DNA from: an uncultured Lachnospiraceae bacterium
Lineage (GTDB): Bacteria; Bacillota; Clostridia; Lachnospirales; Lachnospiraceae
Length of the DNA: 64,000 nucleotides
Direction: 5' to 3'
NCBI GenBank assembly: GCA_946403075.1
Contig: CAMIYN010000001.1
Span: 7,014-71,013 of the forward strand
The notes beneath the pieces were generated by a model that saw only the letters and a list, made by a program, of their open reading frames with translations, had not been told where the DNA came from and searched no databases. A program made the translations under genes and the position numbers. This document shows positions 31,717-63,297 of the stretch, one piece after another (the stretch's first letter is position 1; the number at the start of each line of letters is the position of its first letter).

Positions 31717-31856
31717 ACTATCTTGAAAAGGGCTCGCGTGCTTCGCCCCTACAACTTTCACTGCTATATTGCAAACGGGCTCCCAGTGGTTCGCCCCTAC
31801 GGCCCCTACGGTTAACTCTACTATCTTGCTTCGGGCTCGCGATGCTTCGCCCCTAC
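31717..31856. repeat. Three GC-rich repeat units between the TolC-like gene and eamA
   Basis: GGGCTCGCG-TGCTTCGCCCCTAC (31730-31752), GGGCTCCCAGTGGTTCGCCCCTAC+GGCCCCTAC (31777-31809), GGGCTCGCGATGCTTCGCCCCTAC (31833-31856). Confidence 0.9.
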
Positions 31857-34426: not shown

Positions 34427-34436
34427 TTCATCTCCT

Positions 34437-37538: not shown

Positions 37539-37548
37539 CTCTCACCTC

Positions 37549-38730
37549 TTACCTATCTTGACTCTCAAATAAATTTTTAATATTCACAGTATCTTTAATC
37601 TTGACTGTGACATTTTCTGCGAGATCACTGTGCCATGTCGCAACTATATTATCTCCTTCATTTACCCCTGATAAAACTTCTATTTTATCTATTGTATCAA
37701 TTCCACTTTCAAAAAACTTTTTCATAATAATTCCATCACTATCTACCACATAAACAAAAGGTTTTGTATTTTCATAATAAACTATTTTTTTGGGAAGAAT
37801 ATAAGTATTATTGCTCTTTTCATATACAAAAGTAACTTTTGCCATAACTCCTGATGCAAAAGTATTCTCATCATCTATAACAGCTTTTATATTAAATAAA
37901 CCAGTATTTGCACTTATTAATTTTGCCTTATCTGTCACCGTTCCTGTATAAATCTTTCCTTGTTTTTCAATTTTTACTGTGTCATATAAATTAATCCCAT
38001 CAAGCACACTTTCAGTTACACCAAATTCTACTTGTTTTACATCTTTTGCAGTAATATAACAAAGCACAGTGCCAGAATTTATCGTTACATTTAATGTCAT
38101 ATCTGTATTCTCTATTACCCCATCGCCTGTTGCAACAGGTGTTGCAAACTCAACTTGAGTATCATATTTTAGTTTTGCTCCATCATATTGAGCTTTTATC
38201 TGTTCAAAACTTTGTTTTGATATATCCCCACTCTCGTAAAGTTTTTCCATTCTCTCATAATTTTTTCTTACTGCATCATACTCAATAAATGCAGCATCTA
38301 TTTGCTTTGAATTGTCAATTTCACAAATCTTATCCCCTTTTTTAACTTCTTGGCCATTTGAAACATATATTTTTGTGATTTCTCCACCAACTTTATTTAC
38401 TACATAAAAAGTATCACTTGGCATAATAGTTCCCATAACTGATCTCTCTTTTTCAATACTTCCTTTTTCTATATTAGTAACATTTACAACTGGCAAATTG
38501 ACAACTGCCTCATCTTCCTTATATGTAATTTTTCTCACAATCATTAAAATTATACAAATACATACAAAAATAACACCTAATCTTAAAATAAGTCCTCTCG
38601 CAAAATTTTTTTTATCTTTTTTTTCTCCATCTTCCTTCATCATAATAGTATTTGTCAAATTTTCTTTTATCTTTTTTCCTTTTTTAACCATTTCGTTTAC
38701 ATTTAAATTTTTCATAACCCATCCTTTCAA
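37549..38730 (-). CDS. RND efflux periplasmic adaptor (HlyD/MFP family)
   Basis: 393 aa with an N-terminal TM anchor. Lipoyl/barrel-sandwich hybrid motifs (..VSNGQEVKKGDKICEID..), a coiled-coil hairpin and beta-barrel. Confidence 0.8.
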   Translation of the reverse strand: MKGWVMKNLNVNEMVKKGKKIKENLTNTIMMKEDGEKKDKKNFARGLILRLGVIFVCICIILMIVRKITYKEDEAVVNLPVVNVTNIEKGSIEKERSVMGTIMPSDTFYVVNKVGGEITKIYVSNGQEVKKGDKICEIDNSKQIDAAFIEYDAVRKNYERMEKLYESGDISKQSFEQIKAQYDGAKLKYDTQVEFATPVATGDGVIENTDMTLNVTINSGTVLCYITAKDVKQVEFGVTESVLDGINLYDTVKIEKQGKIYTGTVTDKAKLISANTGLFNIKAVIDDENTFASGVMAKVTFVYEKSNNTYILPKKIVYYENTKPFVYVVDSDGIIMKKFFESGIDTIDKIEVLSGVNEGDNIVATWHSDLAENVTVKIKDTVNIKNLFESQDR

Positions 38731-47088: not shown

Positions 47089-47176
47089 TTGCTACGGGCT
47101 CGCGGTGCTTCGCCCCTACGGCCCCTACGGTTATCGCTACTGTATTGCAAGCGGGCTCGTGGTACTTCGCCACTAC
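47089..47176. repeat. Two GC-rich repeat units at or just past the 3' end of the giant ORF
   Basis: GGGCTCGCGGTGCTTCGCCCCTAC (47096-47119) +GGCCCCTAC, linker GGTTATCGCTACTGTATTGCAAGC, then GGGCTCGTGGTACTTCGCCACTAC (47153-47176). The ORF stop TAG is the complement of 47173-47175, inside the second core. Confidence 0.9.
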
Positions 47177-50100
47177 AATTGCAATATGATTCTGTTTTTT
47201 ATGATGCCCAAGTCATTTACTTCATACTCTACATTACCATATCTTACTTTTTCATTTATTGCCATCTCCCCTGTCTCTTTAAAGAAATAACTCTCCCCAT
47301 TTATAACTTTGATACCTGTTTCAATGTTTCCATCCCTATCAAAACTATAAATATTTATTTTGTTTCCTATCTTGATTTTATATATGCCATTTCTTAATTT
47401 ATCATCATCTATTATATATTGGAGTTTTCCATTTGCATCTATAAAATTGCCACTGTCGTATACTTTACTGTCTGTTAAAATGTTATTTACACTGACTGCA
47501 TACAACATATTTAATATGTTTTTTGTGGTTTCAAGGTTTGATTTGAAATTGCTACTGTCTTGCAATTGGGCTCGTGGTACTTCGCCCCTACGGCTATCGC
47601 TACTGTCTTGCACACGGGCTCCCAAAGGTTCGCCCCTACGGTTATCGCTGCTGTCTTGCACACGGGCTCCCAGTGGTTCGCCCCTACTATTTATTGGGGC
47701 TTCGCCACTACTATTTAGTTCGGCTTCACCACTACTGCTACTGCTTCCCATCGCATTACTTCTTCTATTGCTCATGTTATTTTCTCTAGTTGTCTGAACA
47801 TTTGGACCTGTAGATGTATTCATGCCTGTACCAAATGGAGTTACATTAATATTTACATATCCTAAACCTCCATCAAGTGTATATGCATATATATATATAT
47901 ATGTATAGTTGTCAAAAGCAGGTTGTCTATCCGTATATGCAGTACCATCATATACTATTACTTGTCCTCCATTCCCTGGTTTTTCTGTCCTTCTGCAAGA
48001 GCATATATATATATACATCATACCCTTATTAATAAATGAATGTCCATCCATATCTAAATCATAGCCATTTAAACAAATTCCTGCATATCCATTTACTGGC
48101 ATATCATCTGTAAGTTTTATATCTTCGGTAAGGAAGAAAAATCCCATTTTAGTACTTTGTGGGTTGTCAGCATCATAAAATGCTGTCTTTAATGCACTTA
48201 CTCCACCTTGAGTTAATGGTTCATATGCAAACTTGCCGACATTCCCTGATGTATCTTGCCCCTTACCATTAGTATAATGCTTATGTGTGTTTTCAAGTTC
48301 AGCTATCAATTCTATACTTCCATCTTTTATGTCTAACAACTGACTTACTGGCAAATCTGTTATGCTATTTGTGTCATCTGGCATCACATAATATCTAGCA
48401 GTTATTTGCCCATTTGCAAGTGCTGTATCTATTGCAGTATCCCCTACATTATTTATTTTATTAACTTTCCACCTATTTATTCTATATCCTGGTTTTCTAA
48501 ATACAGTTTGTCCAATAACATATCTTTGATAATACTTTAATTCTTGCGATACATCACTTCCACTTATCAAAGAATCCGTATTTTTTGTGAGTTTCAATGT
48601 GTATTTATTCTCTTCCCATACTGACACAAGGTTAACTGTATAATTATTATTATTATCGATGTTAATCTTAAAATTATCCGTTGACACATCATATGCTGTA
48701 TTTAATTTAAATGTTTTCGTTCCATTTGTATATCCTACAAGTGTAAAGCCTTTCATCTTCGCACCATCATCTGTGAAGGTTATTTTATTCCCCATTCCAA
48801 TACTTTGTGATGGAACACTAGTTTGGCTTGGTGTCTTGCTATTGCCATCCGATGCTATGCTTCCATTAATTGTAAATGAGAACAAAACTTTAGTTTCTTC
48901 CAAAATTGCTGTAAATATAATTGTTGCTCCATCCTCATTTATGAATTTTTGTATTTTTGCACCTGGATTATACTCGTTCCCAACCATATTATATAAATAC
49001 GAAATATCATTCCCACTCTTATTAAGTACTTTTGTAATCTTCCAACTTTTGATATAACAATTTTCTTTTTCTACGGCATCAGTAGATAATTCTATGCTTT
49101 TATAATATCCTACATTTATGTCATCTGTTACAGATAGAGTAGCACCTTCATCATCAGTATTGTATCTAATGTTATATGTCTTCTCAACCCATATAGCCGT
49201 AAATGTAATTGTTATTCCTGAATCTTCTACTCCCATCTCTATTAGTGATACCTCTGCATTTGGCTCATATTGATTGTCATTTATACTTGATTTCCACCCT
49301 ACAATTCTAAATCCTTCAAGTGTAAATGTATTGTCAGGTTTTAATTTAATTCTCTCACCCTCTACATCATTATATGTTATTGAACTATCACTTGGAGAAT
49401 ATTTTTCACCATTTGACCCTATCCCTTCACCTACATTATATACGAGATTGTATTTTATGCCTGCCAATGATTTCCCTATTATCAACTTTTCTTCGCCATC
49501 TATTATTGTAATCATTGTTGACAAATTCTTTCTAACTCCTCCTGTCTCGGCTCTTATTCTTTCCGTTGGATCTATCTCGTTCAATCCAAGAACTGTCTCT
49601 TCATTAAAGTTATTATATACTACTCCTGTATATGGATCAGCTAATGCTATTTCCATATCTGACTCAGCGAGTTTGAATTTTGAATTACTCTTAGTCTTCA
49701 TAAATCCATCATTTCTCAAACTATATACTTGATGTATTTCTCCATCACTCAAATTACCTATAACCTTGATATTTGCATCACCTATCTCCAAAAGTCCTTT
49801 ACTGCCTACCAACAATCCTGCCTTCTCCCCTGTTCCTACAAGGAATGTATTTTCACTTATATTTATTTGCCCACCTGCTTCAATTGTCCCATACATCTCT
49901 ACTGCTCCTTGCAAGCCATTTAGTGCTACAAACTCATTTCCTACTACATTTATTTCTGAATCTACTTGACTTATCCACTTTGTCCCCTCAGCAGTCCTTA
50001 TCGCATATTTTAAATTCTTATTATCTCTTATACTTACTTTTGCCATTTTTACATTTGTGATTGATTGGTTTATTAGATTTATTACTCCCTCTCCTATCCT

Positions 50101-53100
50101 ATAATTATCTTCTATTGCTATATCGTTCTCAAATTGTAAGGCAGTTGAATTTTCTATTTTGAATATATTTTCTCTTACATCCACACCACTTACTGACATT
50201 GTATTTATTGTGAGTTTTGAATTGTCTAATCTAACAAGATTAGAAAACTCCCCACCCTCTACTATAAATTCTGTTATATATTCATCTACATTTACTTCAT
50301 TTGCATTTATATCACTCAAACTTATTAGCATTTGAGTAGTCTTATATCCTACAAACTTAACTTTTGCAAGTGCAAACTCTACACCATTACCCACAATGAC
50401 ACTATTACTCTTTGTTCCAGTTGTTCTCTGTGTAAATGTTGCATTTATTGCTTTAAAACCATTACCATTTATTATTCTATCTGCTACTACATCTATCTCT
50501 GTCTTTCCATATATTCTTCCTTTTACACCAGTAAATACATTGTTGCTACCTAAGTTTGTATATACTGCCTTTTCTTCTTGACAGTTTGTGATTACCACTT
50601 CATACTGCGAACTTCCTGTTGCTTGGAATCTTACTCCTGTTAAGTTAAACCCATTTAAGCATATTACAAGTTTTCCCCTAACTGTTATCACTGTGTCAGT
50701 ATTCTTTGTTATATCTGTCCCAAGATAATAATACCCTTGTCCTCTTGTTATTGCTTGTTCTACACTATCTGTGTCTCTCCACTCTGCATATACTTCACTA
50801 TTACTTCTATGTTGTGCTACTCCTGTATGTTCACAATCAAGCTCATTTATTTGTCCACAATCTTTATGCTTATGACTTCCATCATCATCTACATATGTCC
50901 ATACTGCTCTCAGTACTACTGTTCCACCATTTACTCCTAACCATTCTCTTACTTCATCTCTTGGCCTAAATGTATTTCCTATCTGAACATTATTACTACT
51001 TACATTATTCCCATTTTTATCTATTATTCTCACTACTTCCCAGCTTGCTGATTTGTAATGTTCTCTTATAAAATTAGATGCTCTTATTATAACTGAATCA
51101 TAATAGTATGGCTCTTGTGTTTCTATTTTACCCTGTGCTGCTTCATGTCCTGATTCATATTCTATCTTATATGTATACTCCTCCCACAAACCATATAGAT
51201 ATACTACATCTACTCCATTTATAGTTTTTCTCGCATAATCCAAATCTGGTATAGGTGAACCTGCCATAAATGCTACTACCTTCTCTTCACTGTATGAAAT
51301 ATTTTCTATCGGAGTCCATCCCACAAACCTAAATTGCTTTGCTTCAAATCTATTATTACTCAACACCTGTGTACTCATTATTGATCTTACATCTTGTGAA
51401 TACTCATCCCCCTCTACTTCTACTGTTCCTCCTCTATGTTTTCTTGCAATTCCACCTCTATACACAATTCTATAACCTTGCACTGTTACTATTTTTACAT
51501 CATCTTCTTCTAGTATTACTGACAATAAATTATAATTATGAAGTCCTGTGTCTGCATTAAATACTTTCTTGTATTCTTCCCTTGCATCCTTGCCTTGTGT
51601 TATATGTTGATTGGTAAACTCTTTATATATTGTTCCAAGTGTTACATTCGTAAATGCCACTGTCATACTTGATTTTGTTGTGTCAAATCTACACCCTTCA
51701 TATGTCTCCAAAAAACCATTGCTATTATTAGCCAATACTTCTACAACTTGCCCAGTACTACTTTCACTTCTATTATTTTTTACATTTAAATATCCATTAC
51801 CTAGTTTTATCACAGAAGCACTATTGCCATCCACTAACCTTAGTCCTATTCCCCTTGTAGTAATGTAATTATTACTTATATCTAGATTCCCAAGAATTAT
51901 CGCTTCTCCATTATAATCTAACCAAAATATAGCATTATTCTCTACATAGTTATTCGCTGTTATTAATCTATTTTTAGTTATTAATATATCTGTATCTAGT
52001 GCTACATGTACATTCCCTGCTCCTTGACTAGCAACTATTGATACTATCCTTCCCCTTCCTGTATTTCCATTTATATCCAGTTTCTTTCCCTGTGTCATTG
52101 TAAATTTTGTAACCTTTAATATATTGCCAGTGTTTGCTGTATTATCTTTTATATCCAAATTTCCATCAATAGCGATTGTTCTTATGTCAAACAAATCACT
52201 ACTTACTGTGTTATTATTTATATAATTATCCCCATTAAATGTAATGTCTGTATTATAAAATATATTTCCTTCACTAACGACTTTCTCTACTACACAATCT
52301 TTTAATACCATTCTACTATCATTTATAACAAACTCATCTATATCACAATCATGAACACTTATTGTATCCCATACATTAAATGAGTTTAGAGCAAATGTAG
52401 CAATACCGCTTGCCTCTACTTGTATATCTACATTATATAATACTGTCGCACTTATTTTATTAAATATATATGCTATATTAGTTTTACTTGTTGTTATTTT
52501 TATTTTTTCTTTTCCACCATATATATTACAATACACCCCACTAAACATTGATAAATTGTTATCTTCATGATTAATTTCTATCTCTCCATACATATCTTTA
52601 CAGTTAGATAGATTTACTATTCCCTCACCATTTATCTCTATATTTTGTAGCATATTCCCCGCCAAACATATATTTAATTCTACATTGTTTGGAACTGTTA
52701 ATTCTGTTATCTTATCTTCTTCCCCTGTAATTTGTGTCAAAAATACATATATTTTACTTCCACTATAAGCATCTGCCACTCTTCTCGTTAAATCTTCTAT
52801 TGCAGCAATTGCTGTATATCTATAATTTGAACTATGACTATCTCCCAAATGATTGCAGCTTCCAGTTACACCACATACTTTATGTGTATGATTTGCATCT
52901 ACTGGCATCCAATTTACTTCAAGTACTACTACACTACCATCTCTCTCTGTAAGTCCACTCTTTTTCATATTAGACCCTATGAGCACTATCTCAGGACTTA
53001 TTACCTCTTCTACTTCTACTCCGTTTTTATCTTTATATCTTACCTTCTTTACTTTCCAACCATTTGCTACTGTCCCCTCTCTTGCCTCATATGTGTTTCT

Positions 53101-56100
53101 CTTTAATCTCTCATCAGCAAAATAACTTCCTGTATCATCATCCATTTTCTCTGTTGTCGTATATCCTGCTGTATATTCTATGCTATACTCTACTTCCTTC
53201 CATATTGCAAATACTGGTACCACTCCCCGCTTTGTCGCAAGACTCGGTATCTCTACTAATGGCTGATAGAGAGTTCCTGTTGTATCAGTCTCCTGTAAAC
53301 TCCAACCCATAAATGCAAATCCATCTGCATAATAATAATTTTCGTTTAATTTTACATTCTCATTTAACTCTGCTAATGTATTGCTTACTACTATTCCTTC
53401 ATCTAATTTAACTTCATGCTCATTTCCATTGAAATCTATTGCCCTTCCTTTGTTATATGTTATTTCATATTCTAGATTTTTCCATACTGCAGTCAAAACT
53501 ATTCTTGCTCCATCTATATCAACAAGTCCTTTTTCACTATTGCCTGTAAATCTTTTACCAAGTATTTCCGATTCTACTAAATCTTTTCCATCAGCATCAT
53601 AAATTTTTGTTATCGTCCAACCCACAAAATCAACTGTTTCTTGTTCTGGATACATATTCCTCAAATCAATATTTTCATAATATTCATACTCTCCATCTCT
53701 AATTGTTACATCTATTATGTCTTCCCTTCCAGATTTAAACTCCAAGTTATATTTCTTGTTAGCCCATACTGCTGTAAGAATTATCTCGCTTAAATCATTA
53801 TTTATACCATCTTCTACTACTTCCCCAACATTATACCTATATCCATTTTCACTTACCCAACCTACTACCTTAAATCCTGCAGCTTTTATTATTTCTGCAT
53901 TTTCTTCTGTTAAATTTGTGCTTAAAACTACACTATCTCTATAATAGGCTATCTGATCAGGGTGTTCTCCCTTTGGTATTACATCTGAACCCCCAACACT
54001 TATCACTTCTGATCTATACTTTATAGTATATGTCTTTTGCTCCCATATTGCATATATAAGTATTTCTTCATCATCCTCCACTTCTTCAAATGCAGCCCGT
54101 CCTTCTCCTGGCTTTGTTATATCGCTTTTACCATTTTCATCTACACCTTCCTTATAAGGGCTCCAACCTACAAGTTCAAAACCATCTACCATATATGGAT
54201 TCTCCGTCTTATTTAAAAATGTTATCACTCCTCCTAACGACTCTACTTCTTTTATATAGTTATCAGGTCCACTTATATCTCTTATACTACCATCTCTCCC
54301 CTTTGCTACTCCTCTTTGATAATTTAACCTATACTTTCTATCTATCGCTTCCCCAGGTATTCCTATCCTTATATCCTTTGTCTCTGTTACATATACTACA
54401 AGCCCTTCATTTTCCCTAACTGAGTTAAATGAAATTCCTACCTGTTCTAATTTATTATTTTGCATTATGAGTCCTCTACCATTTGTCCTATTCGTGAATA
54501 GGACATCAACATCCATCTTGTTATCTGTTTCATTTCCTCTCATAAATGCTTTTACATTTTCACTATATATCCCTGCTCCTATCTTTTCCCCTATCCTACT
54601 CTTTACATAACCATACTCAGTAAAGTCAAGATATGCTGACTTCGTTAGATATATCCCTGATAATATTCCACTACTTAAATCTGTATAATTACTATATTGA
54701 TTATTTATTAACTCTAATCCTGCTCCCTTAAAATATATACTACTATCATCTGTTACTTCCACTATCCCTTGTGGACTCTTATTACTATTAATTGTATTCT
54801 GCTTTATCTCAAATTTATCCCCTACTATATAAATATTCTTTACATCATTCCCTACTGATATTATCTCTCCATTAAATGTTGAATTATTTATACTTAATCC
54901 TGACACATAAAAATCATCAGCACTCTTTATTAATTTACTTCCACTATCTACCTTTGCTTTTAAACTTGTCTTCTCTATCACTACTTTACTTGCTTTCTCT
55001 ATGAAATTTGCATTATTTTTTAATTCAAAATTTCCATCAACTCCATACATCCCTATTTCTCTATTTGTATTTATGAAATATCCATCTACTCCATTTACTG
55101 TTATTCCTTTTCTTCCCATTACATAGATTTTTAAATTATCTCCTATCTTTACATTCGTTAACTTACTTTCCTTTGGCTCTCCATTATACTCACAATTTAC
55201 CAAATATAAAATCCCAGAACCTGTAAAGGTTACATTTGTCAATGAATACCCTGATAGACATAGTGATACTTCATTATTTATTGCCACCTCTTGATTACTT
55301 ATATCTCTACTCAGTGAAAATGCACGGCTTTCATTATTAATATCACTTAATGCATTTATTGCTTTATATTTATATCTTGTTGTATGTTCCTCCCCTATCT
55401 CTTTACAACTTATAGAACAACCTTCCTTTACTCCACATAATAAATGTGTGTGCATATTCTCTATTACTACCATTTCCTCTATCTTGTATTCATTTACTAT
55501 TAAATTCTTATAAAGATTTGTATCTGCTTTAAACATTTCTCTATATTTTGTGACATCCTCCACTGTCTCTTCATTCCAGTTCGTTACTATCGTGCCACTT
55601 CCATCATCAGTAGAAAATGCTACTGTCATCTCTGTGTCCTTTGATAGTTTACCACCTGCACCTTCTACTAACTCTATGAAGCCTTCGCTATTTTCACTGT
55701 AGACTTGATACATAACACCATTTGAATTTCCTTTATTATCTTTTACTTTTATAGTGGTATTACCTGCTTTTATACTCTGAGAAGACCCAAATCTCATAGC
55801 AGCAAATATTCTATTAGAAAAATTGTTTTCTGTTATCTTATTATTACTTATATTTAATTTTACATCATTTGATATATCAAATGCACCATCAGATGAATAA
55901 TCTACAATCGCTATATCTATATTTCCAGCTACGATAGTATTTCCACTTATATCTATACTACTATTTTTTATTGCTACACCATTTCCAATAGAAAGCATCC
56001 CTGCTCTCTCCACTTTAGAGTTTGCTATTTTTATATTTGATTTTTCAATGTTTACATTTTCATTCAATGCGACTAATGGATAATTTCGATTCTCCCCACT

Positions 56101-59100
56101 TATATTTATATCCCCTATAAATTTTACATTAGAAAAATCGTATAATATATTCTCACCATTTCCGCGATATCCACTTATATTTGTTTCACTTATTGTCCAT
56201 CCACTATAATTTTCACCATAATGCACTGCTTGTCCCAAATTCACCGAGCTGCTTGATGACGATAATTCTGCTCCACATACTACTGCTTTCTTGCCAAATG
56301 CCAAACTATCACACTTTACTATTATCCTACTTTTAAGACTTATTAAATTCTTTTCATCAATCTTGCCACACATATATCTTATATATATTCTATCACTATT
56401 TACACCCCTATTAAAATCAGCAAGCTCCCCATTTGTAGCATTTACTACTGCCTCATATTTGTCAGTTTCTGTTATCTCATATAAACTTTTTGAAGTATTA
56501 CTTGCTATCACTTCAACTGCGGATACTGGATAACCAGAACCTTGTGTCGTTGTTTTATATAGATACACAAAATTTCCTTCACTGCATCCTTCATTTAGAT
56601 TCCAAGCATTCCCATCAAAATCTGTTATCGCTACATAATCTTTATTTGATAATCCTGTAAAGTCTTTTGGGTTTCTACCATCATCATTAAACCATCTCTC
56701 TCCTATGCCCCAGATTGCTTCACTCTTATTCGTTGTCATTTGATACCCGAGATACAATTCTGCTCCATCTGTGCCTTGGTTTAAATTTGTCTCAAGCATC
56801 ACATATCCCTTACTATCAAATGTGCTTTTTGCAGTTTGTTTTGACATTTTTAGGATTTTTACATCTTTTATGTATTCGTCTGCTTCCGTTCTTTTTACTT
56901 CTACTTCTACCAATAATTTTTGTATTATATTAACTGTCAAATCTTCACTAAAAATATTCACTGAATCATTTTTTAAAGTTGCATTACTCTTTGTAAAACA
57001 GTTAACTATATTAACTTTTCCACTTCCTTCAAATGAAACTCCTTCTATTTTTTTCCCTCTTAAACACAAATTTAATGTTCCATTTACTGTTATAGTTTTC
57101 TTTTCCACTATATTTTGCTTTAGATAAAAATTACCATTGTCAACTATATCAGATATTTTAGTAACCCCTTCAAACAAGACCTCTTCATTTAAATCTATTC
57201 CATTATTTAAAAATTCTGTTTTTATCTCGCTTGAATGATTACATCTATTTTTTATACATCCACACAAACTATGTGTGTGTGTAGCATTATTCCACACTGG
57301 ATATAATATTATCTTTGACCCTATAGCGGCTCCTGGTATTCCTTTAGTAAGTTTTTCTCTCAACTCAAAATCTATATTATCAGAACCTTCTGTAAGGGTC
57401 CAACCTATCTGTTTTACTTCTTCTTCCTCACTCTGAATAGTCCACATCTTATCAAATAATGTTATAGATTTATCGATAGTAGCATATTGAATAATGCTTG
57501 TTTCTTGTCCATTACCCAAAACACTCTTCCACTCCATACTATCTGGTGCAGATAATCTATATTCTATAATATAATCTTTATTGCCTGCACTATAATCCCC
57601 TGGGAACCACATAGAACTTGGGCCGTAGCCACGACTACTAGGATTATACACCTGAAATTTAAAAGGCATAAGTGGATTATGATTATTAAAATTTGCTCTC
57701 GCCTCCCTTATAGGAAAATCATTATCTGGATAAAAAAATCCTTCTTTCCCATACAAGTAAGCCCAACTATATTGCTTCTTTAACTCATCATCTCCATAAA
57801 TTCTTTGCACATATCCTGGACGAGGAGAGTTGGGGTCGTCGACCCAGTACAAACCTGTTCCATCATATTTCTCAGGAGTGTCTTTGTATATTTCATACAA
57901 GTAGTTTGGTATCAGGTATTCATCGTTATTGTTACTTCTATGAGTTTTTAAAACAATACACCCCTCTCTCCCAAATCGATTATCTTTTGTGACATTACCA
58001 AATATTTGTCTCGTCTCATTTTTATCCTCATATACATATGAAAAAGTAATAGATGAATTCCCTTCATTTGCAATAGGACCACATCTTTTTACATCATCAT
58101 TTTCTAATTTAAATAAATGATCCTTCATAATAAAATAATGATTTCTCCAAGTATCATTTCTATAATTTATTAAAGAGAATGTTAGTCCAGCAAAATAATC
58201 CCTATACGAAGAAATACCTGCAGCACTCATATATCTATCAGGAAACTTTGGAGGCTCAAGAATTATCCAAGGGCTTATTAAACCTCTTTCCATTTCAGCT
58301 TTAGTTCTTCCTATTTCAAGTTGTCCATTTGTGATGTTATACCAATCTCTTAACATAATCACATCCAAAGATGTAGGTCTTATTACATGTGGATCATCTG
58401 TAGTGTGTATAAATGTTTTAAAATGAGTATCATAATTAAATATCCCTTCTACAGATGCAAGGGTATTATCCTTTATAACCAAAGAGCCACCTATTCGAGT
58501 GTCCGTTCCATTTAATCTCATACCAACTGGATATGATGTTGGAGAATACTCTCTACTCTCGTCAATATAGCATGGATTAATATTATAATTACATGTATTA
58601 TTTTGAATTCTGACACTTGCAACAGCCTGAATTGTAGTATAGAGTCTTGCACGATAAGGGCTGGCCTTTATCCATGGTCCCCATTCAACTTGATTTACTA
58701 TACTCCCATATCTTTCAATTGTATAATTTCTGCTTTTGTATATCAAACGAGATCCAATTGTACTATTATTCTCTATGTTTATTGCAGGTGCCCTGAGAGT
58801 GCAATCATAAACTTTTGCCGAAGTAAAATCTTGTACTATATCAATAGAATCCTTTAAATATATGTATTCAGCAAGCACACCATCCCCTACTATTGTACTA
58901 CTTGTCCTTGGTGTGAATACGATGTCAGCATAGTCAAGTGCTGACCCTTCACCCTTTTCTTCAAGTCTAAACTCCATTAAAGAATTCGCATCTTTAGGAC
59001 CTGGCACATATAAATCTCTCAATTCTCTAATTTCATCACCACTAATATACCCATATCCAATTTCCCACTGGTCTTCAGCTTTATTCAACCATTCTCTTAA

Positions 59101-62100
59101 TTCTCTTGATGGATCATAATGTATATAAGGATTATAATCAAAATACTTCCTATACTTTGCATTAATCACTTCTCTCACAAGATAATATTTGTTTTTTTGA
59201 TGACAATCGGAAAATGAAACTCCACATATTTCAACTTTAGGATGATAATTACCATAATCATAATAAGTGCCCTCAGCAATTTTCTCTGGATACAGATTTT
59301 GATTCCCATAATGCCAATATAAGCCTGAAGAACAATTTATAAATTTCACATCACTATGAAGAAAAGTATTCTCAACTCTATATATTTCCAAAATAGGTTG
59401 ATATGCTATAGTTTTTCCTTTATTTGTCATATTAAAATTCATAAATTTAACATCTTTTAAATAAACTTTGTTTAGACCATCAAATAATAGTGGAATATCG
59501 TTAGCAACACTAATCCTACCATATGATTTATAATTCATTTGAAAATCATTATAATCAAATACACAATTATATATATAACATGCTGGATGATTATTTAAGG
59601 TTCTAAAACTTCCTGGTCTTATGTGAACTGGTGCTCTAAATTTTATTCCTCTTAAACTCCATATAAAATTCGGTAGTTTATGTCCATACATATATCTACC
59701 ACACCACCCACAGTATCCTATTTTTGCTCGTTCACCACACTGGTATTTCCAGGGCTTATCCGGTTCCAAGATTGTTTCTCTCCATATATATTCCCAATCA
59801 TCTGCATCAACATATACATCACACCATTTTGTTAAACGATCACTAGTTGGCATAAAATCTATACAACCACGATTAAATTCTTGAGTTCCACCAGATATTA
59901 TACTTAACGAACCAAACCAAGCATTGGGCGAATAGAAAAAACAACTCTTTTCTGGGTTACTATATATTGTTGCTACATTGTTTTTACAGTTATATATATG
60001 TAAAGTAAACCATGGGTTGCCAACAACATAAAAATTTTTAATATTTTTTCCATTTAAGCAAATCGTCATTTCTAAAGAAATACCCCTTTTCAACGGAATT
60101 GGGATTTCACCGTTTACAAAAAAAGTATTCCAATCAAACATATCTTGATCTATATAAAATCGATTGTAGAAAGAAGTTGAGGTGCTATAGGGATGACCAC
60201 CACGAATAAAATGCTCATAATAATAAGCTTCATCATAATACCAATCGATATCCGATATATAATATGGAGTTTTAGGAAATGTAGATATTGGAGCATAATA
60301 ATACGAGTACTTTTTATGATAAGGGTCACCAAATGTCTCGTAAAACTTGTTATCTGCATCATTTTTGTATTTATGAGAACCACTTGAGGGAGTATGTTCA
60401 ACCTCTCCATATTTAATTCCTCTTTTTATATTTGGCAACTCAAAACCATCTTTTTCATTTTCTTCAATCTTCTCCCCATTATCTTCGACAGCACCAAGTT
60501 TTTTACTTCTCGCCACTGTCTCTACTTCTTGTTCACTACTACCCAATATCATTTTTCTAATAATTGTTTTATAATTTTCTATTACTTTTCCTAATACTTC
60601 TTCATCTTTTATATAATTGTTTATAGTAAATATTTTTAATTCATTTTCATCATATTCTTCAGCACCTTCACTTTGCAAAGGCAAATCATCTTGTAGAGAT
60701 GTCGCTTCCGTGTTAATCTCATCATTTTCGATGTTTTCATTTTCTACATACTCTATTTCTGATTTATCCATAGGGACAAAGCTATGTGATTCTTCCATCA
60801 CTTTTTCACCACTTATGTCATCATGTAGAGATGCTCCATCTATACCCACATTTTCTGCATCCGTTTTCGCACCATGCTCTCCATCATTTCCATACTTATT
60901 TTGTCTGTTTGGTACATGTATCGCACTGGACTCATCATTATTTATCTTCATATCATCACTATCGATGTTTTCATTTTCTAAATATTCTGCATCAGCCTCA
61001 AAAATGCTATATTCTTCATCAACTTCGTTTTTTGCATGTTCTACTTCGGGATCCCAAGGATTTGTCTCTTCTGTGTCTTCTTTTTCGTTTTCTTCTTTTA
61101 TTATCCCCTCAAGTTTTAATGCCTCATAACTTCTATCATATAATTCTCTCAAAACACTATTAGCAATTTCTGCTGGCATATATATTGAACTCAATTCTTC
61201 TTTACCAGTATAATTTTCATACTTATCTACACCACTACTTATTGCAGCCTCTACTTCTTTTATCAATCTATCCTTATCTAATTGAAAACTTATCTCAGCA
61301 TTGTTATCTTCATTTTTTATTGATTCTATAACTTCTTTTTCGTTATATATATTCTTCCACACTGCTGGGACAACTACTACTTTTTTAAGCCCATAATCAT
61401 CACTTATTACAACAGACACAATAGGACTGAGAAGTAGTTCTTCGTAAAGCAATGCTTCTTTTATTTCTTGTTCTTCTTTGTAAGGAACAGAAATCTCTTG
61501 CCTTTCATCTGTTCCTTGCATCAAAACTTTTACTATCTTCCAGTTATTTTCAGTTATTCCACTCTTTTGGTTTTTTATAAATAAATCTATATAGTTAGTT
61601 ATGTTTTCATCTATTTTTGTTTCATCATCATTATTTTCTATACTTGCTTCACTTGCTGTAGATGGTGAAGCAGCTGTGCCATTGTCTATAGTATTTATAT
61701 CGGGCACGGGGTACTTCACCTCTACATCATTTGGATTCGCCCCTACAACGGCATCTTCTGCATTTTCTATATTCTCGTTTTCTTCATTTGTCTCATCGGG
61801 CTCGCGATGCTTCGCCCCTACATTATTTTCGTTCGCCCCTACGACTTCGTTGTCATTGTTCTCATTGTCATCAGCGGGCTCCCAATGGTTCGCCCCTACA
61901 TTATTTTCGTTTGCCCCTACAACGGCATCTTCTGCATTTTCTGTATTCTCGTTTTCTTCATATTCCCCATCGGGCTCGCGATGCTTCTCCCCTACGGTGT
62001 TTGGGTTTGTCTCTACAGTATCATCGCTTTTGTTTTCCTTATTCTCATTTTCTAGATATTCTCCATCGGACACGGGATACTTCGCCCCTGCATTACTTGG

Positions 62101-62484
62101 GTTCTCCCCTGCAACGGCATCTTCTGCATTTTCTGTATTCTCGTTTTCTTCATATTCCCCATCGGGCTCGCGATGCTTCGCCCCTACGGCTTCTACTTCT
62201 ATATCTTCATCAATTCCATTTAACTCATCACTATTTTCACCTTCAGCAAAAAACTCACCACCTTCATTTGGTGCTGTGGTATTTGTATCTTCCACGGTTT
62301 CGCTACTACTATCACTTTTTGGTTTTGTGCTAGCAAGTGTTGACACAGCATTACTGCTTATCAACATACTTAATAGTAGCACAAAAGAGATAACTCTCTT
62401 TAAGTTACCCACAGTAAATATTTTTGCGGTAAAACTTTTTACTCCTTTTTTAATTTTTAAAAAGTTAGTCATATGTGTTTTCAT
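47173..62484 (-). CDS. Giant (5103 aa) modular secreted/cell-surface protein. Signal anchor, acidic repeat region, ~1000-aa Tyr/Trp/Cys-rich region, five HxH..CG...CL(N/S/R/A)G + beta-helix-like modules alternating with Listeria-Bacteroides (Flg_new-type) repeats, then C-terminal cell-wall-binding-like repeats
   Basis: A single uninterrupted 15.3-kb frame in a stop-rich AT genome, with strong SD AAAGGAGGT 7 nt before the ATG. N-terminal hydrophobic segment VISFVLLLSMLISSNAVSTLA. Repeated ..GF.(V/L)VGW.. ~70-aa units (e.g. GFELVGWSPYKEG, GFKVVGWVSENG, FRFVGWTPIE, GFRIVGWKSS, GFTLVGYTNG). The C-terminus ..NGESYFFKETGEMA.. resembles choline/cell-wall-binding repeats. Confidence 0.85.
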   Translation of the reverse strand: MKTHMTNFLKIKKGVKSFTAKIFTVGNLKRVISFVLLLSMLISSNAVSTLASTKPKSDSSSETVEDTNTTAPNEGGEFFAEGENSDELNGIDEDIEVEAVGAKHREPDGEYEENENTENAEDAVAGENPSNAGAKYPVSDGEYLENENKENKSDDTVETNPNTVGEKHREPDGEYEENENTENAEDAVVGANENNVGANHWEPADDNENNDNEVVGANENNVGAKHREPDETNEENENIENAEDAVVGANPNDVEVKYPVPDINTIDNGTAASPSTASEASIENNDDETKIDENITNYIDLFIKNQKSGITENNWKIVKVLMQGTDERQEISVPYKEEQEIKEALLYEELLLSPIVSVVISDDYGLKKVVVVPAVWKNIYNEKEVIESIKNEDNNAEISFQLDKDRLIKEVEAAISSGVDKYENYTGKEELSSIYMPAEIANSVLRELYDRSYEALKLEGIIKEENEKEDTEETNPWDPEVEHAKNEVDEEYSIFEADAEYLENENIDSDDMKINNDESSAIHVPNRQNKYGNDGEHGAKTDAENVGIDGASLHDDISGEKVMEESHSFVPMDKSEIEYVENENIENDEINTEATSLQDDLPLQSEGAEEYDENELKIFTINNYIKDEEVLGKVIENYKTIIRKMILGSSEQEVETVARSKKLGAVEDNGEKIEENEKDGFELPNIKRGIKYGEVEHTPSSGSHKYKNDADNKFYETFGDPYHKKYSYYYAPISTFPKTPYYISDIDWYYDEAYYYEHFIRGGHPYSTSTSFYNRFYIDQDMFDWNTFFVNGEIPIPLKRGISLEMTICLNGKNIKNFYVVGNPWFTLHIYNCKNNVATIYSNPEKSCFFYSPNAWFGSLSIISGGTQEFNRGCIDFMPTSDRLTKWCDVYVDADDWEYIWRETILEPDKPWKYQCGERAKIGYCGWCGRYMYGHKLPNFIWSLRGIKFRAPVHIRPGSFRTLNNHPACYIYNCVFDYNDFQMNYKSYGRISVANDIPLLFDGLNKVYLKDVKFMNFNMTNKGKTIAYQPILEIYRVENTFLHSDVKFINCSSGLYWHYGNQNLYPEKIAEGTYYDYGNYHPKVEICGVSFSDCHQKNKYYLVREVINAKYRKYFDYNPYIHYDPSRELREWLNKAEDQWEIGYGYISGDEIRELRDLYVPGPKDANSLMEFRLEEKGEGSALDYADIVFTPRTSSTIVGDGVLAEYIYLKDSIDIVQDFTSAKVYDCTLRAPAINIENNSTIGSRLIYKSRNYTIERYGSIVNQVEWGPWIKASPYRARLYTTIQAVASVRIQNNTCNYNINPCYIDESREYSPTSYPVGMRLNGTDTRIGGSLVIKDNTLASVEGIFNYDTHFKTFIHTTDDPHVIRPTSLDVIMLRDWYNITNGQLEIGRTKAEMERGLISPWIILEPPKFPDRYMSAAGISSYRDYFAGLTFSLINYRNDTWRNHYFIMKDHLFKLENDDVKRCGPIANEGNSSITFSYVYEDKNETRQIFGNVTKDNRFGREGCIVLKTHRSNNNDEYLIPNYLYEIYKDTPEKYDGTGLYWVDDPNSPRPGYVQRIYGDDELKKQYSWAYLYGKEGFFYPDNDFPIREARANFNNHNPLMPFKFQVYNPSSRGYGPSSMWFPGDYSAGNKDYIIEYRLSAPDSMEWKSVLGNGQETSIIQYATIDKSITLFDKMWTIQSEEEEVKQIGWTLTEGSDNIDFELREKLTKGIPGAAIGSKIILYPVWNNATHTHSLCGCIKNRCNHSSEIKTEFLNNGIDLNEEVLFEGVTKISDIVDNGNFYLKQNIVEKKTITVNGTLNLCLRGKKIEGVSFEGSGKVNIVNCFTKSNATLKNDSVNIFSEDLTVNIIQKLLVEVEVKRTEADEYIKDVKILKMSKQTAKSTFDSKGYVMLETNLNQGTDGAELYLGYQMTTNKSEAIWGIGERWFNDDGRNPKDFTGLSNKDYVAITDFDGNAWNLNEGCSEGNFVYLYKTTTQGSGYPVSAVEVIASNTSKSLYEITETDKYEAVVNATNGELADFNRGVNSDRIYIRYMCGKIDEKNLISLKSRIIVKCDSLAFGKKAVVCGAELSSSSSSVNLGQAVHYGENYSGWTISETNISGYRGNGENILYDFSNVKFIGDINISGENRNYPLVALNENVNIEKSNIKIANSKVERAGMLSIGNGVAIKNSSIDISGNTIVAGNIDIAIVDYSSDGAFDISNDVKLNISNNKITENNFSNRIFAAMRFGSSQSIKAGNTTIKVKDNKGNSNGVMYQVYSENSEGFIELVEGAGGKLSKDTEMTVAFSTDDGSGTIVTNWNEETVEDVTKYREMFKADTNLYKNLIVNEYKIEEMVVIENMHTHLLCGVKEGCSISCKEIGEEHTTRYKYKAINALSDINNESRAFSLSRDISNQEVAINNEVSLCLSGYSLTNVTFTGSGILYLVNCEYNGEPKESKLTNVKIGDNLKIYVMGRKGITVNGVDGYFINTNREIGMYGVDGNFELKNNANFIEKASKVVIEKTSLKAKVDSGSKLIKSADDFYVSGLSINNSTFNGEIISVGNDVKNIYIVGDKFEIKQNTINSNKSPQGIVEVTDDSSIYFKGAGLELINNQYSNYTDLSSGILSGIYLTKSAYLDFTEYGYVKSRIGEKIGAGIYSENVKAFMRGNETDNKMDVDVLFTNRTNGRGLIMQNNKLEQVGISFNSVRENEGLVVYVTETKDIRIGIPGEAIDRKYRLNYQRGVAKGRDGSIRDISGPDNYIKEVESLGGVITFLNKTENPYMVDGFELVGWSPYKEGVDENGKSDITKPGEGRAAFEEVEDDEEILIYAIWEQKTYTIKYRSEVISVGGSDVIPKGEHPDQIAYYRDSVVLSTNLTEENAEIIKAAGFKVVGWVSENGYRYNVGEVVEDGINNDLSEIILTAVWANKKYNLEFKSGREDIIDVTIRDGEYEYYENIDLRNMYPEQETVDFVGWTITKIYDADGKDLVESEILGKRFTGNSEKGLVDIDGARIVLTAVWKNLEYEITYNKGRAIDFNGNEHEVKLDEGIVVSNTLAELNENVKLNENYYYADGFAFMGWSLQETDTTGTLYQPLVEIPSLATKRGVVPVFAIWKEVEYSIEYTAGYTTTEKMDDDTGSYFADERLKRNTYEAREGTVANGWKVKKVRYKDKNGVEVEEVISPEIVLIGSNMKKSGLTERDGSVVVLEVNWMPVDANHTHKVCGVTGSCNHLGDSHSSNYRYTAIAAIEDLTRRVADAYSGSKIYVFLTQITGEEDKITELTVPNNVELNICLAGNMLQNIEINGEGIVNLSNCKDMYGEIEINHEDNNLSMFSGVYCNIYGGKEKIKITTSKTNIAYIFNKISATVLYNVDIQVEASGIATFALNSFNVWDTISVHDCDIDEFVINDSRMVLKDCVVEKVVSEGNIFYNTDITFNGDNYINNNTVSSDLFDIRTIAIDGNLDIKDNTANTGNILKVTKFTMTQGKKLDINGNTGRGRIVSIVASQGAGNVHVALDTDILITKNRLITANNYVENNAIFWLDYNGEAIILGNLDISNNYITTRGIGLRLVDGNSASVIKLGNGYLNVKNNRSESSTGQVVEVLANNSNGFLETYEGCRFDTTKSSMTVAFTNVTLGTIYKEFTNQHITQGKDAREEYKKVFNADTGLHNYNLLSVILEEDDVKIVTVQGYRIVYRGGIARKHRGGTVEVEGDEYSQDVRSIMSTQVLSNNRFEAKQFRFVGWTPIENISYSEEKVVAFMAGSPIPDLDYARKTINGVDVVYLYGLWEEYTYKIEYESGHEAAQGKIETQEPYYYDSVIIRASNFIREHYKSASWEVVRIIDKNGNNVSSNNVQIGNTFRPRDEVREWLGVNGGTVVLRAVWTYVDDDGSHKHKDCGQINELDCEHTGVAQHRSNSEVYAEWRDTDSVEQAITRGQGYYYLGTDITKNTDTVITVRGKLVICLNGFNLTGVRFQATGSSQYEVVITNCQEEKAVYTNLGSNNVFTGVKGRIYGKTEIDVVADRIINGNGFKAINATFTQRTTGTKSNSVIVGNGVEFALAKVKFVGYKTTQMLISLSDINANEVNVDEYITEFIVEGGEFSNLVRLDNSKLTINTMSVSGVDVRENIFKIENSTALQFENDIAIEDNYRIGEGVINLINQSITNVKMAKVSIRDNKNLKYAIRTAEGTKWISQVDSEINVVGNEFVALNGLQGAVEMYGTIEAGGQINISENTFLVGTGEKAGLLVGSKGLLEIGDANIKVIGNLSDGEIHQVYSLRNDGFMKTKSNSKFKLAESDMEIALADPYTGVVYNNFNEETVLGLNEIDPTERIRAETGGVRKNLSTMITIIDGEEKLIIGKSLAGIKYNLVYNVGEGIGSNGEKYSPSDSSITYNDVEGERIKLKPDNTFTLEGFRIVGWKSSINDNQYEPNAEVSLIEMGVEDSGITITFTAIWVEKTYNIRYNTDDEGATLSVTDDINVGYYKSIELSTDAVEKENCYIKSWKITKVLNKSGNDISYLYNMVGNEYNPGAKIQKFINEDGATIIFTAILEETKVLFSFTINGSIASDGNSKTPSQTSVPSQSIGMGNKITFTDDGAKMKGFTLVGYTNGTKTFKLNTAYDVSTDNFKINIDNNNNYTVNLVSVWEENKYTLKLTKNTDSLISGSDVSQELKYYQRYVIGQTVFRKPGYRINRWKVNKINNVGDTAIDTALANGQITARYYVMPDDTNSITDLPVSQLLDIKDGSIELIAELENTHKHYTNGKGQDTSGNVGKFAYEPLTQGGVSALKTAFYDADNPQSTKMGFFFLTEDIKLTDDMPVNGYAGICLNGYDLDMDGHSFINKGMMYIYICSCRRTEKPGNGGQVIVYDGTAYTDRQPAFDNYTYIYIYAYTLDGGLGYVNINVTPFGTGMNTSTGPNVQTTRENNMSNRRSNAMGSSSSSGEAELNSSGEAPINSRGEPLGARVQDSSDNRRGEPLGARVQDSSDSRRGEVPRAQLQDSSNFKSNLETTKNILNMLYAVSVNNILTDSKVYDSGNFIDANGKLQYIIDDDKLRNGIYKIKIGNKINIYSFDRDGNIETGIKVINGESYFFKETGEMAINEKVRYGNVEYEVNDLGIIKNRIILQL
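47176..47460 (-). other. C-terminal cell-wall/glucan-binding-like repeat region of the giant protein
   Basis: SGNFIDANGKLQYII..., NIYSFDRDGNIETG, INGESYFFKETGEMAINE, VEYEVNDLGII are degenerate aromatic-Gly ~20-aa repeats of the CW_binding_1 type. Confidence 0.45.
47551..47740. repeat. Three full GC-rich repeat units (exact 48-nt period) plus half copies, translated inside the giant ORF
   Basis: Cores at 47568-47591, 47616-47639 and 47664-47687. Half copies GGGGCTTCGCCACTAC (47697-47712) and GGCTTCACCACTAC. Translated as ..SRGEPLGARVQDSSDNRRGEPLGARVQDSSDSRRGEVPRAQLQDSS.. Confidence 0.9.
47887..48015. repeat. Two AT dinucleotide tracts, (AT)8 at 47887-47902 and (AT)6A at 48003-48015, inside the giant ORF
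   Basis: Read directly from the sequence. They encode ..TYIYIYAYT.. and ..MYIYICSC.. Confidence 0.9.
56370..56870 (-). other. Three-fold beta-prism-like (MABP-like) insert within module 1 of the giant protein
   Basis: Three similar segments: GYVMLETNLNQGTDGAELYLGYQ, DYVAITDFDGNAWNLNEGCSEGNFVYLYK, YEAVVNATNGELADFNRGVNSDRIYIRYM. The pattern (GY.v....(D/N)(L/F)N.G....YL.Y) recalls MABP/beta-prism repeats. From memory only. Confidence 0.3.
61702..62187. repeat. Six GC-rich repeat cores plus half copies embedded in ~190-bp tandem repeats, translated in the N-terminal acidic region of the giant ORF
   Basis: Perfect or near-perfect cores at 61798-61821, 61876-61899 (type b), 61972-61995 and 62164-62187. 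Diverged cores at 61702-61725 and 62068-62091. Translated as VGAKHREPDGEYEENENTENAEDA, VGANHWEP, VGEKHREP. Confidence 0.9.
62329..62484 (-). other. N-terminal signal peptide / membrane anchor of the giant protein
   Basis: A basic stretch (KIKKGVKSFTAKIFTVGNLKR) followed by hydrophobic VISFVLLLSMLISSNAVSTLAS. Confidence 0.6.
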
Positions 62485-62549
62485 ATCAACTACCTCCTTT
62501 GTTAAATGGATTGATGTTTATATTTTTATAATTTAATGTTGGATAATTT

Positions 62550-62629
62550 AACTATCTTGCTTCGGACTCGTGGTACTTCGCCCCTACTATTTATTTGGGG
62601 TTCGCCCCTACGGCCCCTACGATTGCAAC
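62550..62629. repeat. GC-rich repeat unit(s) in the leader 70-145 nt upstream of the giant ORF start
   Basis: Linker ACTATCTTGCTTC, core GGACTCGTGGTACTTCGCCCCTAC (62564-62587), then TATTTATTTGGGGTTCGCCCCTACGGCCCCTACG. Confidence 0.9.
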
Positions 62630-63297
62630 AATAGGCAGAAAAATTCTATCTACCCCACTATATTATATAGCAAAATGAACCAATTTAAAATTGGTCGCAA
62701 TATTCCATCAAAATTATAACACAATATTAAATTTTTTACAATAAAAAAATGCGAAAAAATTATTTAAATTTTATTGGTCCTTGTAAAATACAAACAATTT
62801 TAAAATTATTTAAATACTATGTATAATATATGGGATTTTTAGACTGTGTAATATTAAATAGTATAAATTTATAATAGTTTTAATAAAGTATTTTTATTAA
62901 CTTAAAAAATTTTAGTAATTTAACACTATGGTATATTGAGAATTTGTTGAATTTTTTAGTATTTTCAATTATTTTACCTTAAATTGTATGAATTTTATAA
63001 ATTTTTTGCTCTTTCAAATTGAATATGGGGTTTTAGGCATTTTCTAAACAACTAATTTTGTCACTAAAACCAACAGAACTTTTTGCTGAATTGTAGAGGA
63101 CTATTCCAATATAGTAGTTTTCTTGCTATAGAAAAATATTACTGAATCGTAGAGAAGCACTGCGACATAGTGTGTAGGGTAAAATTTGTAAATAATAAAT
63201 TCTATGCCACCAAAAAATTTAATGTCGCCCACATTTTATATAAGAAAACTACTGTTTTGGAATTAAAGGTTCAGTTTCAATATAGATAACAATAGTT

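Follow-up and report, generated by a model that had tools for sequence, protein, structure and literature searches.

This analysis concerns a giant open reading frame (ORF), and the module reiterated along its predicted product, on contig CAMIYN010000001.1 (GenBank assembly GCA_946403075.1) of an uncultured Lachnospiraceae bacterium. The whole stretch of DNA that was analysed, referred to here as the window, comprises 64,000 nucleotides (nt; positions 7,014 to 71,013 of the contig). On the minus strand of the window, positions 47173-62484 were shown by ORF listing and translation to encompass an uninterrupted frame of 5103 codons with a ribosome-binding site (RBS) and a stop codon, in agreement with the 5103-amino-acid (aa) ORF described in an earlier interpretation of the same letters (the sequence-only reading). 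The ATG start codon is located 8 nt 3' of the RBS (AAAGGAGGT) and is preceded by a gene-free and very AT-rich region of ~800 nt (62485-63297), in which no Rfam match was obtained. All features of the giant ORF described below are encoded on the minus strand.

The motif HxHxx[C/N]G was found at aa 1736, 2345, 3199, 3871 and 4734 (window positions 57256-57282, 55429-55452, 52867-52890, 50851-50874 and 48265-48288, respectively), within a few nt of where the sequence-only reading had placed the starts of five modules. Each of these motifs is followed, 61-75 aa further on, by a CLxG motif (aa 1807, 2409, 3273, 3942 and 4804), and the CL(R/S/A/N)G signature that had been proposed downstream of each module start was thereby located at all five sites. 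A profile of the module head identified six copies in the giant ORF, with domain E-values of 6e-6 for a degenerate first copy and between 1e-17 and 2e-25 for the other five, while the remaining reading frames of the window yielded none; the module count is therefore six rather than five. The His/Cys cluster that was said to open each module is present, except that the fifth copy listed at the time is truncated and lacks the Cys part. Self-comparison of the giant protein showed that the stretches following the motifs are paralogous, and a five-way alignment of the modules revealed pairwise protein identities of 20-29%, with both His residues, the Gly, the C-L-x-G motif and a downstream Cys being invariant. 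Since the longest DNA repeat common to the modules is ~35 nt, and their identity is this low, the modules are old paralogues and not the product of a collapsed or duplicated assembly.

The deduced protein commences with a signal-like segment (62329-62484, including the start codon; aa 1-52), in which inspection of the translation by eye identified a basic n-region, a 17-residue hydrophobic stretch (VISFVLLLSMLISSNAV) and the sequence TLA|S, an arrangement that appears to fit a Sec signal with a presumed cleavage site. Acidic low-complexity repeats with a 96-nt period (VGAKHREPDGEYEENEN...) are located at 61676-62239 and represent in-frame copies of a GTAG-tagged element that is described further below. 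The degenerate first module (module 0; 57310-60387, aa ~700-1725) was recognized by its head at aa ~798-847, which retains ICLNG (an extra CLNG motif, at aa 809) and IYNC and is devoid of the HxH/Cys knuckle. Its body of ~900 aa has an unusually high content of Tyr, Trp, Phe and Cys, as exemplified by YYYAPISTFPKTPYYISDIDWYYDEAYYYEHF and CGERAKIGYCGWCGRYMYGH, and neither detectable relatives nor a Pfam match was found for module 0 outside the head.

Module 1 (55483-57309, aa 1726-2334) consists of a head (HTHSLCGCIKNRCNH...LCLRG...IVNC), an insertion, a beta-helix body and a tail (...TNWNEETV). Within the insertion of ~210 aa between head and body (aa ~1855-2070; 56275-56920), an internal repeat of the type I..V.I......GY......N.G....(I/L)Y(I/L).Y occurs twice and may point to a beta-prism or lectin-like domain; no Pfam or PDB sequence match was obtained with the insertion. 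Module 2 (54340-55482, aa 2335-2715; head HTHLLCGVKEGCSISCKEIGEEH...LCLSG...LVNC, then a beta-helix body) is separated from module 3 by a spacer of ~5 divergent Flg_new (InlB B-repeat)-like domains (52921-54339, aa 2716-3188; repeat-profile matches at aa 2716-2817, 2818-2910 and 3004-3098). Module 3 (51568-52920, aa 3189-3639; head HTHKVCGVTGSCNHLGDSH...ICLAG...LSNC, beta-helix body and tail) is followed by a spacer of two to three Flg_new-like repeats (50905-51567, aa 3640-3860; match at aa 3669-3769). Module 4 (49585-50904, aa 3861-4300; head HKHKDCGQINELDCEHTGVAQH...GYYYL...ICLNG...ITNC), which was modelled as a right-handed beta-helix, precedes a further spacer of ~5 such repeats (48316-49584, aa 4301-4723; matches at aa 4343-4435 and 4531-4626). 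The truncated module 5 (47800-48315, aa 4724-~4895; head E 1e-17) retains HKH, ICLNG and YICSC, lacks the Cys/His knuckle and possesses a short body. The protein ends in a Ser/Gly-rich linker (47515-47799) that includes three in-frame 48-nt copies of the GTAG-tagged element (RRGEPLGARVQDSSD x3) and, in the last ~115 aa (aa 4991-5103; 47173-47514), about four degenerate 20-aa repeats of the choline-binding or cell-wall-binding type, as judged by eye, followed by a TAG stop codon.

To delineate the module family, an exhaustive HMMER search with the five-module profile was performed against 1.84 billion cluster representatives, which yielded 244 representative proteins at E<=1e-3, 54 of them at E<=1e-10. 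A refined head profile located 448 head copies in the best 150 of these 244 proteins, with one to eight copies per protein at a spacing of about 200-600 aa, and the length of the module body was shown to vary across the family from about 200 to over 600 aa. Named members are annotated as 'hypothetical protein', with one (P0014) designated 'BspA family LRR surface protein', and originate from metagenome-assembled genomes (MAGs) of Lachnospiraceae and Ruminococcaceae/Oscillospiraceae. The closest relatives (P0002-P0006, P0012, P0014 and P0016) exhibit the head, beta-helix body and conserved tail of the giant protein, the tail being represented by the consensus ...G-x-[IV]-x-x-N-W-x-x-E-x-V; full-length matches were obtained to modules of P0003, P0005, P0014, P0016 and others, and P0003 contains Flg_new-like repeats besides the shared module syntax. 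Five heads in the window, and less strongly the degenerate one, match the family, in which the head consensus H-x-H-x2-C-G ... G-x-Y-Y-L-x2-D ... L-C-L-N-G ... I-[TC]-[DN]-C leads into the beta-helix body. An exhaustive profile search was required to retrieve these relatives: a word-indexed search with module 3 alone returned nothing, the same type of search with a 30-sequence profile returned at least six proteins, and module 4 alone found no relative among the contigs of Genome Taxonomy Database (GTDB) species representatives. The gene neighbourhoods of two small homologues contained transporters and a flavodoxin and no conserved partner, and therefore offered no clue to function.

The sequence-only reading had placed the module outside any characterised family, and the searches bear this out. 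No significant Pfam or NCBIfam match, including to the curated beta-helix families Beta_helix, Pectate_lyase_3 and NosD, was obtained with the whole giant protein or with ten sub-segments; no meaningful match to PDB sequences was obtained with module profiles of either 5 or 30 sequences, nor with a spacer block; and five homologues scanned in full carried no Pfam or NCBIfam annotation over the module. A Beta_helix match was observed only in homologue P0008 (E 1.3e-5), just under the cut-off. When 30 alignment members were scanned singly no recurrent family emerged, the matches to zinc families among members being single and sub-threshold (Znf_SCAND3 and zf-CDGSH), and a DUF5006 match on module 4 (E 0.013) was rejected as chance since it was seen in no other member. 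Pfam (2025 copy), NCBIfam 20, the PDB and the searchable literature contained no description of the module, and, on the basis of these comparisons, the module is a genuine domain family annotated by no database.

Conservation across the family was shown to be located in the cap and core of the module. In 152 complete heads, the consensus begins with H(96%)-x-H(100%)-x2-C(96%)-G(97%)-x(3-6)-C(84%)-x-H(62%)-x(~5)-H(91%) and continues with G-x-Y-Y-L-x2-[DN] ... L-C(100%)-L-N-G ... I-[TC]-[DN]-C(94%) ... G-x-I. When all 448 heads were considered, the Cys residues of CLNG (439/443) and of [DN]C (413/435) represent the most conserved residues of the family, and about 43% of heads carry C-D-C. The HxH motif was aligned in 287 heads, with the second His present in every one of them (287/287), while among the remaining 161 heads an HxH was located just upstream in 85 and an HxxH in 22. 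Within the 28 residues that follow HxH, exactly four Cys and His residues (CCHH, CCCH or CCCC) were observed in 150 of the 287 aligned heads, and three Cys/His residues together with C-x-[D/E] in place of C-x-H in a further 62, so that 212 heads present four Cys, His, Asp or Glu ligands. In 20 heads these ligands are all absent, with HxH and both helix Cys residues being kept. Among the window knuckles, those of modules 1 and 2 are of the CCCH type and those of modules 3 and 4 of the CCHH type, while module 5 has none.

Most of the 287 heads thus present what is expected of a structural zinc site at the sequence level, i.e. four conserved ligands subject to conservative interchange. Maintenance of the ligand number through exchanges between Cys, His and Asp/Glu, the gain or loss of the ligands as an all-or-none unit, and the i/i+2 spacing of the strand His pair together constitute the signature expected of tetrahedral metal sites and not of disulfides, and the conservation and ligand-swap statistics fit metal sites much better than disulfides. 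Of the two options that the sequence-only reading had offered for the cluster, metal binding and a disulfide/thioether-type feature, the first is therefore favoured. From this pattern we infer that two putative structural metal (Zn) sites cap each beta-helix.

The fold was predicted with AlphaFold2 (AF2) for module 4 (aa 3862-4300), using a 30-sequence full-module alignment, which resulted in a model with a mean predicted local distance difference test (pLDDT) score of 82.5 and a predicted template modelling (pTM) score of 0.85; a single-sequence AF2 prediction of module 3 reached a pLDDT of 43.5. In the module 4 model, a short strand (H10-K11-H12), then a loop, another strand and a single helix lead into an all-beta solenoid, with short strands recurring through residues 56-430. 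All Foldseek matches in the PDB and BFVD were to right-handed parallel beta-helix proteins (among them CBA120 TSP3, PfbA, AlgG, the Sf6 and HK620 tailspikes, the Limosilactobacillus reuteri SRRP, chondroitinase B and the crAss001 tailspike), and none of them is a close structural relative of the model. The module is therefore confidently predicted to fold as a right-handed parallel beta-helix, and the N/G/I-rich runs previously ascribed to such a fold correspond to rungs in the AF2 model, although the Foldseek matches themselves are weak.

The spacers between modules are built from repeats of about 90 aa of two alternating sub-types, which carry the signature G[FY]xFxGW ... LxAxW in five window repeats, with a sixth copy being found through the repeat profile. 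They had been described as Flg_new-type repeats, and in this respect the outcome is mixed: the Pfam Flg_new models gave no match on three spacer blocks even at E<=5, while an iterated profile built from the five window repeats reached a Pfam-positive Flg_new repeat of P0008 (aa 3318-3386) with an E-value of 1e-4 in the third iteration and of 1e-9 in the fourth, in a small database of 150 proteins, which together with the signature is indicative of remote homology. The canonical Flg_new repeats of homologues terminate in ...A-L-W immediately before the next HxH, as the spacers do in the giant protein. Because the iterated profile reaches canonical Flg_new and the placement before HxH is the same, the spacers are interpreted as divergent InlB B-repeat domains.

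Neither an LPXTG sorting signal nor SLH domains were found in the giant protein. Other members of the family contain Flg_new (1e-51 in P0008), SLH (3e-32 in P0069) and YDG (in P0010) domains, supporting an extracellular, wall-associated location of the family. These domains, together with the BspA-type name of one homologue, support the surface or adhesin role that the sequence-only reading had suggested; its signal anchor and wall-binding-like C-terminus held in part, as a signal-like segment can be discerned by eye while the wall repeats are recognized at a sub-threshold level.

The giant protein is considered a probable wall-tethered fibre or adhesin, in which metal-clasped beta-helices alternate with Flg_new spacers and hypervariable bodies serve as binding surfaces. 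In this model the protein would be exported by the Sec pathway and tethered to the wall non-covalently through its C-terminal choline-binding-type repeats, with six rigid right-handed beta-helices and strings of divergent Flg_new domains projecting outward in alternation. Provided that the C-terminus is wall-bound, module 0 would constitute the distal tip of the fibre and a candidate ligand-binding end. At the N-terminal end of each solenoid, a first site (site A) would be formed by the HxH strand and the two Cys residues on the first two rungs (L-C-L-N-G and I-[T/C]-[D/N]-C), and a second (site B) would in most copies be supplied by the loop C-G-x(3-8)-C-x-[H/D/E]-x(4-6)-H after HxH, as a Cys2His2-type knuckle. 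The metal would most likely be Zn(II), with a structural role in nucleating or locking this end of the solenoid in a disulfide-poor, anaerobic setting. The hypervariable bodies would act as working surfaces and most likely bind ligands or glycans, e.g. of plant fibre, other cells or the host, which makes an adhesin or stalk likelier than an enzyme. The analysis shows the intact ORF, the six-fold modularity, the membership of a family, the predicted beta-helix fold and the pattern of ligand conservation and exchange; export, anchoring, adhesive role, the identity of the metal and the allocation of residues to the two sites are predictions. A bolder version of the proposal is put forward only tentatively and is rather doubtful. 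In this version the head is an undescribed binuclear metal clasp (site A with the optional site B) whose role would go beyond the structural, making the folding, rigidity or ligand binding of giant surface fibres in anaerobic gut and rumen Clostridia dependent on metal or redox state, and it would define a new class of metallo-beta-helix repeated up to eight times per protein.

Several observations weigh against the fibre interpretation with its capping metal sites. The Foldseek matches reach at best an E-value of 2.5e-3, with template modelling (TM) scores of 0.2-0.47 and 8-13% identity; the C-terminal Choline_bind_3 match (E 9e-4, 19.6 bits) falls below the Pfam cut-off of 27; three residues stacked in a strict ladder of rungs might not come close enough to one another to hold one ion; and the helix Cys residues, being kept in the 54 of 448 heads that lack an upstream HxH or HxxH, could simply serve core packing or form a disulfide. 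Moreover, the Foldseek neighbours include AlgG/AlgE6 epimerases, chondroitinase B, PL6 alginate lyases, polygalacturonases and phage depolymerase tailspikes, which, together with a host related to rumen Lachnospiraceae, would suit carbohydrate-active enzymes. The beta-helices would then be lyases, hydrolases or epimerases of the pectate-lyase superfamily, making the giant protein a multi-catalytic fibre degrader of a rumen bacterium, with the His/Cys cluster as a structural accessory or as part of an active site. We regard such an enzymatic function as unlikely, because matches of this strength (E>1e-3, TM 0.2-0.35) reflect nothing more than a common fold, no enzyme family of Pfam or NCBIfam was detected on the giant protein or on five homologues, and the bodies are hypervariable in both length and sequence. 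Furthermore, family-wide conservation resides in the N-terminal cap and not in a body groove, the exception being the short tail (...NWNEETV) of the closest relatives. The 30-sequence alignment, in which the variable bodies are poorly aligned, contains no invariant or nearly invariant body column. As for the ORF itself, it is a very long, repeat-bearing gene that was probably assembled from a metagenome, and its tandem arrays are confined to low-complexity stretches, one at each end (96-nt and 48-nt periods), from which it might be supposed that the 15.3-kb frame is an assembly chimera or a collapsed repeat and that the five- or six-fold architecture is unreal. That supposition is scarcely credible, given that modules of such low identity and with such short shared DNA repeats leave nothing to collapse, that a single unbroken frame runs from RBS to stop, and that independent MAGs also encode the head-body-tail-Flg_new syntax with three to eight modules; possible error would be restricted to the copy number of the terminal low-complexity arrays.

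A further reading dispenses with the metal site. If the conserved Cys residues formed disulfides or a cysteine ladder, with the His residues being incidental or involved in pH-dependent packing, then the position of the rung Cys residues of module 4 (C81 and C107) about one coil apart, where stacking is possible, their retention in the 54 heads without HxH or HxxH, and the additional Cys partners supplied by C-D-C would all be accommodated. This explanation is improbable, since HxH on a beta-strand constitutes a classic metal-ligand pair and disulfides do not predict that exchanges from His to Cys or to Asp/Glu would preserve four ligands (150 plus 62 of 287 heads) or that the unit would be lost as a whole (20 of 287). 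In addition, the hosts are strict-anaerobe gut Clostridia, in which extracellular disulfides are uncommon. It was also considered that the cluster might be a centre of catalysis or self-processing, at which the chain is cut or stapled into module-sized units, e.g. by autoproteolysis at x|C-G or by cross-linking, as it is positioned exactly at the junction after Flg_new (...AVW-x(3-8)-HxHxxCG) in the giant protein and its homologues and contains a nearly invariant C-G dipeptide. Knuckle-less copies without C-G are common and otherwise intact, the ligand swaps follow the pattern of metal sites, and none of the searches revealed a resemblance to Hint, GPS, SEA or thioester/ester-bond domains, rendering self-processing very unlikely.

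When compared with known systems, the module recalls the beta-helix regions of PfbA of Streptococcus pneumoniae (PDB 4MR0/3ZPP) and the binding region of SRRP of L. reuteri (5NXK) in its predicted fold class, its extracellular location in Firmicutes and its occurrence as a module of a large wall-associated protein. This likeness is confined to the fold level (E 6e-3 to 0.1, TM 0.26-0.47, 11-12% identity): neither protein was matched by the module profile in the PDB search, the HxH/Cys signature and the tail are not detectably shared, and the giant-protein family differs in reiterating its module up to eight times per protein. The best Foldseek E-values were obtained with phage tailspikes and pectate-lyase-superfamily proteins (CBA120 TSP3, 5W6F; Sf6 TSP, 4URR; AlgG, 4NK6; chondroitinase B, 1DBG), which likewise consist of a right-handed beta-helix of about 12-13 rungs, yet share no significant sequence or profile match and no common catalytic motif with the module, which instead conserves an N-terminal His/Cys cap. 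The spacers have their signature in common with Flg_new/InlB B-repeat (PF09479, PF18998) proteins of Firmicutes and Bacteroidota, whereas the window repeats are longer, of two alternating sub-types and invisible to Pfam. In a higher-GC branch of the family, rungs of the type GGGVYN.GTFTM.GG.I..N resemble those of chlamydial Pmp proteins (PF02415), with one member matching Chlam_PMP (E 2.6e-5); in contrast, the giant protein exhibits N/I/S-rich rungs, no PMP match and no autotransporter barrel, and is encoded by an apparently monoderm host. The head resembles Cys2His2 and Cys3His zinc knuckles in its four close Cys/His ligands, in the interchange of Cys with His and of His with Asp/Glu, and in its all-or-none occurrence, but the arrangement C-x(4-8)-C-x-H-x(4-6)-H between a strand HxH and a beta-helix fits no Pfam zinc-finger model.

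Beta-helix modules in giant Firmicutes surface proteins were known already; what is new here, and sets the module apart, is the HxH/CCHH/CLNG/DC cap, the conserved tail and the reiteration. Most giant surface proteins of uncultured Clostridia from rumen and gut carry the annotation 'hypothetical', and a recurrent module of ~400 aa has now been delimited among them, the definition of which could be converted into a Pfam/InterPro entry. The variable helix bodies represent candidate determinants of attachment to plant fibre, the host or other microbes. A metal clasp, if real, would constitute a new way to cap and stabilise extracellular beta-solenoids in anaerobes, and the His/Cys signature would then provide a handle to annotate, express and crystallise such proteins.

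With regard to the host, the FeoB protein encoded in the window is 74-76% identical to that of rumen Lachnospiraceae MAGs (water deer, goat and cattle rumen uncultured genomes, RUGs) and at most 58% identical to all else, and the host appears, from these comparisons, to be a monoderm member of the Lachnospiraceae. The genes flanking the giant ORF are ordinary and encode ModABC, FeoB, ZnuA, a TetR-type regulator and a resistance-nodulation-division (RND) pump. The RND efflux operon (33284-38730, minus strand) specifies an AcrB-type pump and an HlyD-type adaptor, and an adjoining protein is weakly OEP/TolC-like (E 2e-4); a diderm, Fusobacteria-like host, suggested by the pump and the weak OEP match, was rejected as FeoB groups with Lachnospiraceae MAGs. 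Across the whole window, no Rfam match at the gathering threshold and no tRNA were found.

Finally, a GC-rich, GTAG-tagged hairpin element of about 48 nt (unit GTAGGGGCGAAGCATCGCGAGCCC plus ~24-34 nt) was observed to be dispersed in this 28% GC genome. The GTAG motif has 27 matches in the window, compared with 0.15 expected, 26 of which are on the gene strand, and the elements are located on the minus strand at 11915, 22965-23092, 27683-27801, 31739-31856, 47106-47176, 47578-47711, 61712-62187 and 62574-62611. Direct tandem arrays of two to three elements are present in five intergenic spaces of the window. Two elements are located some 90-130 nt 5' of the giant ORF's start codon and the TAG stop codon of the ORF lies inside another, while the low-complexity ends of the ORF correspond to in-frame copies, the 48-nt period giving rise to RRGEPLGARVQDSSD and the 96-nt period to VGAKHREPDGEYEENEN. 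The inner 2-bp stem of the GGGC...GCCC hairpin varies in a compensatory manner (GC..GC, CC..GG and GU..AC), and the element thereby resembles GTAG-tagged repetitive extragenic palindromes (REPs), for which compensatory stem behaviour has been described and Firmicutes or Clostridia are not mentioned in the main text (PMC3733652). No RAYT gene was found in the window, and the exact 24-mer of the element turned up on a single JGI metagenome contig only (L084). Two further genes, encoding an aminotransferase (10556-12094, minus strand) and RNase J (25522-27549, minus strand), are extended at the N-terminus by about 120-147 aa ahead of the Pfam domains, and the extension of the aminotransferase contains SGENDNH repeats in tandem as well as one GTAG element. 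Either the genes actually start further downstream, or the element may have been absorbed into the coding sequence here as well.

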